DNA of 14,225 nt from a virus (IMGVR_UViG_2778261499_000009:1-14225), one strand, 5' to 3'. Positions 7,691 to 7,900 are shown, counted from the stretch's first letter. Numbers and translations are program-made. Notes: a model not told the origin generated them from the sequence alone.

Positions 7691-7839
7691 AAAGAAGATT
7701 TCCAATAATCAGAACAAGTCGGCTCCTGTTTAGTTACGAGCGACATTGCTCCGTGTATTCACTCGTTGGAATAAATACACAGTGCAGTGTTTATTAGTAT
7801 GCCTGTCTTTTAACCACATCAGGCTCGGTGGTTCTCGTG

Positions 7840-7884
7840 TACCCCTACAGCGAGAAAAATAGTAAAATCCTCTTACCCCTACAG
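7840..7884 (+). repeat. two direct copies of TACCCCTACAG, 34 bp apart, upstream of the 7901 gene
   Basis: Exact 11-bp repeat at 7840-7850 and 7874-7884, flanking a TAAAAT -10-like hexamer (7863-7868); possible operator/regulatory sites. Confidence 0.4.
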
Positions 7885-7900
7885 TAAGAGAGTGATTTAT

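Follow-up and report, generated by a model that had tools for sequence, protein, structure and literature searches.

What reads two exact copies of one 11-bp sequence in front of a prophage accessory gene, and why are both kept? In the window, i.e. the whole 14,225-nt stretch of viral DNA analysed, TACCCCTACAG occurs on the plus strand at 7840–7850 and again at 7874–7884, 34 bp from start to start, with TAAAAT at 7863–7868 and the ATG of a 164-codon open reading frame at 7901. The sequence is here 100% identical to that of Escherichia phage ev099 (47,224 bp). A sequence-only reading of this DNA had correctly reported the two perfect copies upstream of the 7901 start, within a range (7839–7890) that brackets both, and had proposed that they are binding sites of a dimeric or repeated regulator; we agree with its remark that they are unlike cI operators.

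A repeat pair at a Psie-type promoter

Taken alone, the TACCCCTACAG pair is statistically unremarkable and constitutes weak evidence: when the window is shuffled with its dinucleotides preserved, an average of 0.22 exact direct repeats (11-mers within 60 bp of each other) arises per shuffle, and 17% of shuffles contain one or more. The window holds three direct-repeat loci within 60 bp, as compared to the 0.22 expected, the studied pair included; the other two are located at 3547/3577 (GCTTCCAGTTC) and at 9705/9757 (the 12-mer TTTTTCGAGTTT, inside an NYN-domain gene). What places the pair beyond chance is the conservation of both copies and of their spacing across phages. A pair spaced by 33–35 bp is also present in lambda, P22, HK620, VT1-Sakai, the Rac prophage and about one fifth of complete E. 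coli genomes. Upstream of sieB in lambda, TACCCCTACAG and AACCCCTACAG are separated by 34 bp, P22 has TACCCCTACAG and cACCCCTACAG at the same distance, both copies are exact in HK620, and the Rac prophage of E. coli K-12 carries ATACCCCTACAG and ATACCCTTACAG, 35 bp apart. Among 17 distinct spacer variants of the window's type (class A, see below), the copy-2 9-mer CCCCTACAG is 100% conserved, a value biased upwards, since the pattern used to retrieve some of this sample required both copies, while the TAnnnT of the −10 element is conserved to 94–100% and most spacer positions to 35–76%. A sample collected with the anchor only, independently of the repeats, gave the same picture. Both copies are under purifying selection relative to the spacer in class A. 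A search of the whole ev099 genome for further copies, suggested by the sequence-only reading as a check on regulator binding, yielded no third TACCCCTACAG at up to one mismatch.

The elements discussed in the following are, in window coordinates:

7784–7905, minus strand: predicted region of a sas-like antisense RNA, with putative ends; its positional homologue in P22 is the 127-nt P22A-sas
7801–7831, no strand assigned: anchor, 31 nt, GCCTGTCTTTTAACCACATCAGGCTCGGTGG, nearly invariant, left boundary of the cassette
7832–7856, putatively minus strand: hairpin 1, which folds on both strands
7840–7850, plus strand: repeat copy 1, TACCCCTACAG, overlapping the −35 region (placed via the annotated P22 promoter) and forming the tip of hairpin 1
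7863–7868, plus strand: −10 element TAAAAT of a Psie-type promoter, matching in position the annotated P22 −10 TAAACT
7869–7891, minus strand: hairpin 2 around copy 2, from a terminator-like match and fold
7874–7884, plus strand: repeat copy 2, TACCCCTACAG, with the transcription start predicted at A7875 by P22 homology
7901–8395, plus strand: rightward sieB-slot gene (open reading frame, 164 aa, coiled coil followed by CxxC...CxxC), probable ribosome binding site AAGAGAG at 7886–7892

The promoter was missed by a simple consensus scan owing to its poor −35 sequence (TGTACC/TACCCC); its position derives from P22. Window positions 7800–7884, from the anchor through copy 2, share 87% identity with P22 29652–29736, which includes the features "sieB promoter" and "sieB RNA start site" and occupies the same slot, opposite to pL; the corresponding region of lambda is homologous. 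In the curated P22 record BK000583, the sieB promoter spans from TGTACC, overlapping copy 1, to the −10 TAAACT, and the sieB RNA is annotated to start at the initial A of the second ACCCCTACAG. The TAAAAT of the window aligns at the −10 position. The P22 annotation thus supports the earlier proposal that the repeats bracket the promoter of the rightward sieB-slot gene, and the alignment confirms the placement of copy 1 over the −35 region and of copy 2 at the transcription start. By this homology it is well supported that copy 1 overlaps the −35 region and that copy 2 opens at the start site; the rightward mRNA is predicted to begin with ACCCCUACAG, at A7875.

The same stretch is transcribed in the opposite direction in P22. 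Small-RNA sequencing of P22 infection (2026) detected the leftward sas (P22A-sas) RNA as a 127-nt species; from the sieB start codon, its sequence reads through both repeats (CUGUAGGGGU twice), continues into a hairpin on the left and stops past the anchor (PMC13397905). The anchor falls in the 3' part of the P22 sas RNA. In the account of Ranade and Poteete 1993 (J Bacteriol 175:4712 and Genes Dev 7:1498) given in PMC12197685, sas switches translation of the sieB mRNA from SieB to Esc upon P22 superinfection, and sas from the superinfecting P22 acts on the sieB mRNA of the resident prophage. It is therefore well supported by homology that both copies lie inside the stretch which yields the leftward sas RNA in P22, and that they are part of a portable cassette (about 7801–7900) homologous to the sieB promoter and sas region of P22 and lambda. 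By homology, the element belongs to the known Psie/sas type, here placed before an HkaP-like gene. The sequence-only reading had named membership in a longer known element as an outcome that would speak against it, and insofar as the repeats belong to the Psie/sas region this is what was found.

A sas-like RNA of the window would be made from leftward pL transcription and would comprise hairpin 2, hairpin 1 and the anchor hairpin. The left flank of the region differs between the window and P22. Read-through from pL is the likely source of the antisense RNA. A divergent promoter sharing the −10 region, with a leftward RNA starting at hairpin 1, is plausible in the window, lambda and P22: a minus-strand TAnnnT can be read in the spacer of some class-A subtypes. 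It was dropped as a general rule, since none was read in the spacers of classes B and C. Rfam contained no family at the gathering threshold in the window, with only chance-level matches at 7600–8100, and has no family for the anchor or for the leftward RNA. In the literature searched, which covered the 1993 work through the summary in PMC12197685, the repeat or anchor sequence appeared only in the P22 small-RNA paper (PMC13397905), and concerted evolution of the repeats across classes was not found.

Hairpins and architectures of the cassette

More than 200 loci with unrelated left and right flanks carry the anchor in almost invariant form. Its arms, GCCTG (7801–7805) and CAGGC (7820–7824), form a stem predicted by RNAalifold, which in Rac is present as a compensatory variant (GCCCGG/CCGGGC). 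The CCAC(C) of the anchor loop could pair with GGTGG just 3' of the stem, possibly forming a pseudoknot. A small open reading frame from an ATG inside the anchor was rejected, because the base varies (ATG/AAG/ACG); a boxA-like anchor, alternative sigma factors and LexA-type half sites were set aside as poor matches.

Hairpin 1 consists of the outer arms TTCTCG (7832–7837) and CGAGAA (7851–7856), the inner arms TGTA (7838–7841) and TACA (7846–7849), and a CCCC tip (7842–7845) which reads GGGG on the minus strand; the class A hairpin on that strand is UUCUCG-C-UGUA-GGGG-UACA-CGAGAA. RNAalifold, applied to a MAFFT alignment of 40 variants, recovered the anchor stem only, the classes being misaligned in hairpin 1; per-sequence folds were used instead. 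In these, copy 1 is always located at the tip of hairpin 1. The outer arms co-vary (TTCTCG/CGAGAA, TTCCTT/AAGGAA, ATCCTG/CAAGGAT, TGCTGG/CCAGCA, TTCTTGG/CCAAGAA and others). The fold is more stable on the minus strand in 46 of 51 unique variants, albeit with an energy gap that stems in part from loop parameters. The inner stem of class C, GUUGUU/AAUAGC, pairs on the minus strand only, via two G-U pairs, and L042, L072 and L312 have G-U pairs on the minus strand and A-C mismatches on the plus strand; overall G-U counts (44 versus 41) do not separate the strands. We lean towards an action of hairpin 1 on the minus strand, rather than regarding it as proven.

Hairpin 2 has the core arms CTCTTAC (7870–7876) and GTAAGAG (7884–7890) and comprises 7–9 bp with the outer pairs 7891–7869 and 7877–7883. 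On the minus strand it is followed by ATTTTACTATTTTT, giving it the look of an intrinsic terminator. It is confined to the HK620/ev099 subtype and absent from the lambda and P22 subtypes. It could stop leftward transcripts that are not antiterminated just before hairpin 1. Three hairpins (hairpin 2, hairpin 1, anchor) are predicted for the minus strand of the window as well as for the P22 sas RNA, with modest z-scores of −1.3 and −1.8.

With the anchor as a handle independent of the repeats, cassettes of four architectures were found (examples; hairpin-1 arms; repeat; −10 element; spacing):

Class A: window, lambda, P22, HK620; TTCTCG/CGAGAA; ACCCCTACAG twice; TAAACT, TAAAAT or TATAAT; 34 bp
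Class B: L155, L170, L183; TTCCTT/AAGGAA; TTTCCACAGTCAAA twice; TAGACT; 33 bp
Class C: L152, L243, L196; ATCCTG/CAAGGAT; TCCCCAACAAC twice; TAATCT; 33 bp
Class D: L127, L139, L149; various, co-varying arms; a single copy; TGnTATNNT right after the anchor; no spacing

Within classes A to C the repeats are spaced by 32–35 bp, and the −10 element is found 32–38 nt downstream of the anchor. Identity between copy 1 and copy 2 averages 0.94 within a cassette, as compared to 0.60–0.65 between copy 1 and the copy 2 of another class, and the differences between classes, which amount to only 3 of 10 positions for A and C, fall at the same positions in both copies. Class C variants are likewise the same in both copies (TCCCCAATAGT in L174, CCCCAACAG in L312/313, TCCCCAACAACAG in L196). 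The copies are not always identical (CCCC versus CCCT in Rac; copy 2 varies in class C), and a few cassettes (L256, L299, L128 and others) lack copy 2. Class D, found also in L208, L223 and others, has the extended −10 TGnTATNNT followed by a co-varying hairpin, a Shine-Dalgarno sequence, a start codon and small unrelated genes; it is probably the ancestral arrangement.

In L128, L130, L147, L158 and L167, copy 2 passes right after ACCCC into a different sequence, ACCCCCTTATTTTGTCAGGGGG... (a hairpin), so that the mosaic junction lies within the repeat; these loci are apparently devoid of a rightward gene. Two stretches of Rac (L253), 4406–4503 on the minus strand and 4566–4660, are of interest here: Rac contains a divergent copy of the cassette upstream of sieB, and KilS, an annotated small RNA from the kilR 5' UTR (start 1,418,502), is a separate RNA with its beginning about 60 nt left of the Rac anchor.

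The repeat class is independent of flanks, downstream gene and host. Classes A and B have left-flank sequences in common, as do C and D, and A and C; genes of at least 25 unrelated families occur downstream of the cassette in the sampled loci; and HkaP-like genes follow both class A and class C. All three two-copy classes are present in complete E. coli genomes, namely class A in 1034, class B in 12 and class C in 1441 of 5426, i.e. A and C each in roughly one fifth to one quarter. Since the class is uncoupled from flanks, gene and host, a host factor, the downstream protein or a protein encoded nearby is unlikely to read the repeats. Autoregulation by the downstream protein was rejected for the same reason, as one repeat class precedes unrelated genes and one gene family follows different classes. 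The reader is most simply sought inside the cassette itself.

A proposed RNA pair and competing explanations

A reader inside the cassette could be the antisense RNA. Upon induction or superinfection, antiterminated transcription from pL would run leftward through the cassette and produce an RNA on which CUGUAGGGGUA is displayed by the tip of hairpin 1, beyond the stretch overlapping the mRNA; in the subtype of the window, CUGUAGGGGUA would be presented a second time on hairpin 2. CUGUAGGGGUA is complementary to the first 10–11 nt of the predicted mRNA (ACCCCUACAG), and pairing of the tip with the 5' end would start a duplex, leading to loss of translation or stability of the prophage-expressed gene. 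It may act in cis, or in trans between phages of one cassette class. Since the tip would have to keep matching the 5' end of the mRNA, the two copies would then change together. An ancestral 5' leader was probably duplicated in tandem to give this arrangement, a step which would have moved the promoter of classes A to C 34 bp downstream; in class D, with its promoter right after the anchor, the predicted mRNA start falls in the hairpin tip, and the mRNA 5' end would itself be antisense to this tip. The reading we favour is that the hairpin tip of the antisense RNA and the 5' end of the rightward mRNA are obliged to remain complementary, in the manner of the RNA-OUT/RNA-IN pair of IS10; we consider it a serious possibility, if somewhat short of probable.

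Co-folding predictions are consistent with this reading. With the scaffold stripped of cis-complementary sequence and energies taken net of hairpin opening, leaders are predicted to bind scaffolds of their own class with −12 to −19 kcal/mol and those of other classes with −2 to −7 kcal/mol; the mRNA and scaffold of the window give −15.8 kcal/mol. The window thus combines, by prediction, a stable hairpin with a tip complementary to the first nucleotides of the mRNA, as in IS10. The matched RNA pair is favoured because the arms of hairpin 1 co-vary, the copies change together and specificity is contained in the cassette itself. Several points weaken it. The read-through antisense RNA is already fully complementary to the leader in cis, making a second site look redundant; only the GGGG of the hairpin-1 tip is open, the remainder of copy 1 being held in a 4-bp inner stem that must open; there are only about 3–6 independent co-changes, in phylogenetically related sequences; and in some cassettes copy 2 is imperfect or missing. 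Differences between copies are mostly of a type that keeps the mRNA and the antisense RNA paired, a test confounded by the constraint of the hairpin on copy 1 and by the small number of events.

A matched RNA pair would account for the shutdown, by the prophage itself, of its potentially suicidal defence gene at the onset of lytic growth, and for the ability of related superinfecting phages to disarm that of a resident. As P22 sas acts in trans on resident mRNA, a shared 5' end could permit cross-silencing within a class. The repeat class would then be a simple sequence rule predicting which phages cross-silence which prophages, and the cassette a compact, portable promoter-plus-antisense control module. 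More specifically, the repeat might be a self-contained RNA "address", with a class-wide 10-nt mRNA 5' end and its complement on a hairpin of the early leftward transcript; an incoming or induced phage might use it to silence in trans the slot defence gene of a resident of the same class; and classes A, B and C might be specificity groups comparable to immunity groups and driven by phage conflict. Taken jointly, these three propositions are doubtful.

The main rival, which we likewise hold to be unlikely, is a frozen tandem duplication. Each copy would be conserved for a reason of its own, namely participation in hairpin 1 and the −35 region for copy 1 and a role as initial transcribed sequence or mRNA 5' end for copy 2. 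The copies would be alike by descent, the duplication having possibly occurred independently in each class, and not through coupling. In favour of this rival, the stretch that follows copy 1 is similar to the leader that follows copy 2, both in P22 (GAGAAATCGGATAAAC and GAGAATCGCCGATGAAC) and in L243 of class C (AAGGATTCGGTTAATCTG and AAGGAATCGAATAATG), and this resemblance to the leader and start-codon region suggests that the −10 element may derive from the latter. The existence of the single-copy class D and the changes that copy 2 tolerates in class C and Rac agree with it as well. However, in all three two-copy classes the −10 element keeps the same distance to the anchor, and their spacers can be aligned (xTCGGxTAAxCT), so that one old duplication is more parsimonious than three, and parallel change in both copies thereafter is favoured. 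L174 and L146, moreover, share a derived spacer and yet differ in parallel in both copies, and a frozen duplication leaves the invariance of the first 9–10 nt of mRNAs for unrelated genes unexplained. Should it nevertheless apply, the cassette would still be a useful annotation of a widespread promoter.

The regulator originally proposed, a protein binding both 11-mers at −35 and +1 for activation or repression, is not favoured, and we rate it as improbable. The poor −35 sequence might indeed call for help, −35 and +1 are typical repressor positions, and the classes share a loose motif, C-rich followed by ACAG/ACAA; given that A and C differ at only 3 of 10 positions, a single factor recognizing this motif is conceivable. 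Yet the 47-kb phage genome offers no other site, the repeats are direct and not palindromic, and with three classes coexisting in E. coli a host factor would need three specificities. A phage-encoded protein fits no better, as the class is uncoupled from adjacent phage modules and the downstream gene: class A is common to lambda, P22, HK620 and ev099, the N genes of which differ, as presumably do their repressors. Class D manages with a single copy, copy 1 is embedded in a co-varying hairpin, and both copies are contained in an antisense RNA detected in P22 infection.

Still less probable, indeed very unlikely, is a role of the repeats as a recombination or mosaic boundary, i.e. as microhomology for exchange of the slot gene or deletion of the 34-bp promoter segment. 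Homology between phages often stops right after copy 2, the five mosaic loci mentioned above are joined to different sequence inside it, and the slot holds its many gene families; breakpoints at this site would, however, be expected in any case if selection on the shared cassette reached no further than copy 2. Moreover, 10–11 bp is very short for homologous exchange, and the hairpin, the fixed promoter geometry and the parallel change of the copies would remain unexplained. A chance repeat without function, for which only the shuffled windows speak, is refuted to the point of being negligible by the maintenance of copies and spacing around a variable spacer in lambda, P22, HK620, Rac and hundreds of prophages.

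Related systems and the genomic slot

In IS10/Tn10, RNA-OUT folds into a stable hairpin, and pairing with the transposase mRNA, RNA-IN, begins between the loop of this hairpin and the mRNA 5' end. The proposed pair resembles it in that the tip of an antisense hairpin would be complementary to the extreme 5' end of an mRNA, with nucleation by G-C pairs, and class D has the IS10-type geometry directly. In classes A to C, by contrast, the hairpin is encoded 34 bp upstream of the mRNA 5' end and complementarity is provided via the direct repeat; the antisense RNA apparently originates from a long operon transcript rather than from a dedicated convergent promoter, and the two systems are unrelated in sequence. 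Among the cis-antisense RNAs of lambdoid phages are also lambda OOP, directed against cII, and P22 sar, directed against ant (PMC12197685, PMC13397905). The putative RNA of the window resembles them as a short structured antisense RNA tuning a phage gene according to developmental state, whereas OOP and sar act only via the region they overlap and not through a displaced match as proposed here. We know of no RNA of the OOP/sar type with a second, displaced copy of its target sequence.

Moron accessory genes carry their own promoter. The cassette is similar to moron-type prophage cassettes (for the general concept, see PMC7067206) in providing a self-contained promoter before interchangeable, prophage-expressed accessory or defence genes, but here conservation and mobility reside in the promoter module rather than in the gene, and an antisense-RNA scaffold is part of this module. 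With respect to P22, the sas RNA of which contains both repeats, the window differs in its spacer and leader, which form the additional hairpin 2 with the terminator-like tail, and in its gene. The latter is HkaP-like (164 aa) and not sieB/esc, and the SieB-to-Esc translational switch thus cannot apply as such.

The cassette is found between the N-type antiterminator gene and the ral/ea10 side of the pL operon. The plus-strand gene 7901–8395 is flanked by an N-like antiterminator gene (8388–8789, minus strand) and an Ea10 homologue (7276–7644, minus strand); a strong leftward terminator at 7692–7671, beside the latter, is the homologue of HK620 tL2A. The same slot accommodates sieB in lambda, P22 and VT1-Sakai and hkaP in HK620, transcribed rightward against the early leftward operon, and constitutes a hotspot of prophage-expressed exclusion and defence genes. 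The 164-aa product belongs to phrog_1244 (E = 4e-53), a phrog without assigned function, and shares 27% sequence identity with HK620 HkaP, annotated as a putative superinfection exclusion protein; it has no significant match in Pfam or PADLOC. The gene is not a sieB with an in-frame internal esc start; homology assigns the cassette, and not the gene downstream, to the Psie/sas family.

RefSeq NC_049953 does not list the 164-aa gene on the plus strand and instead annotates an 88-aa open reading frame inside it on the opposite strand (gp46, 8081–8347, minus strand), probably a mis-annotation. Between the N-like gene and the gene of a LexA-family (cI-type) repressor lies that of the NYN-domain protein (9193–10050, minus strand), in a position which we take to be that of rexAB in lambda, another prophage accessory slot.
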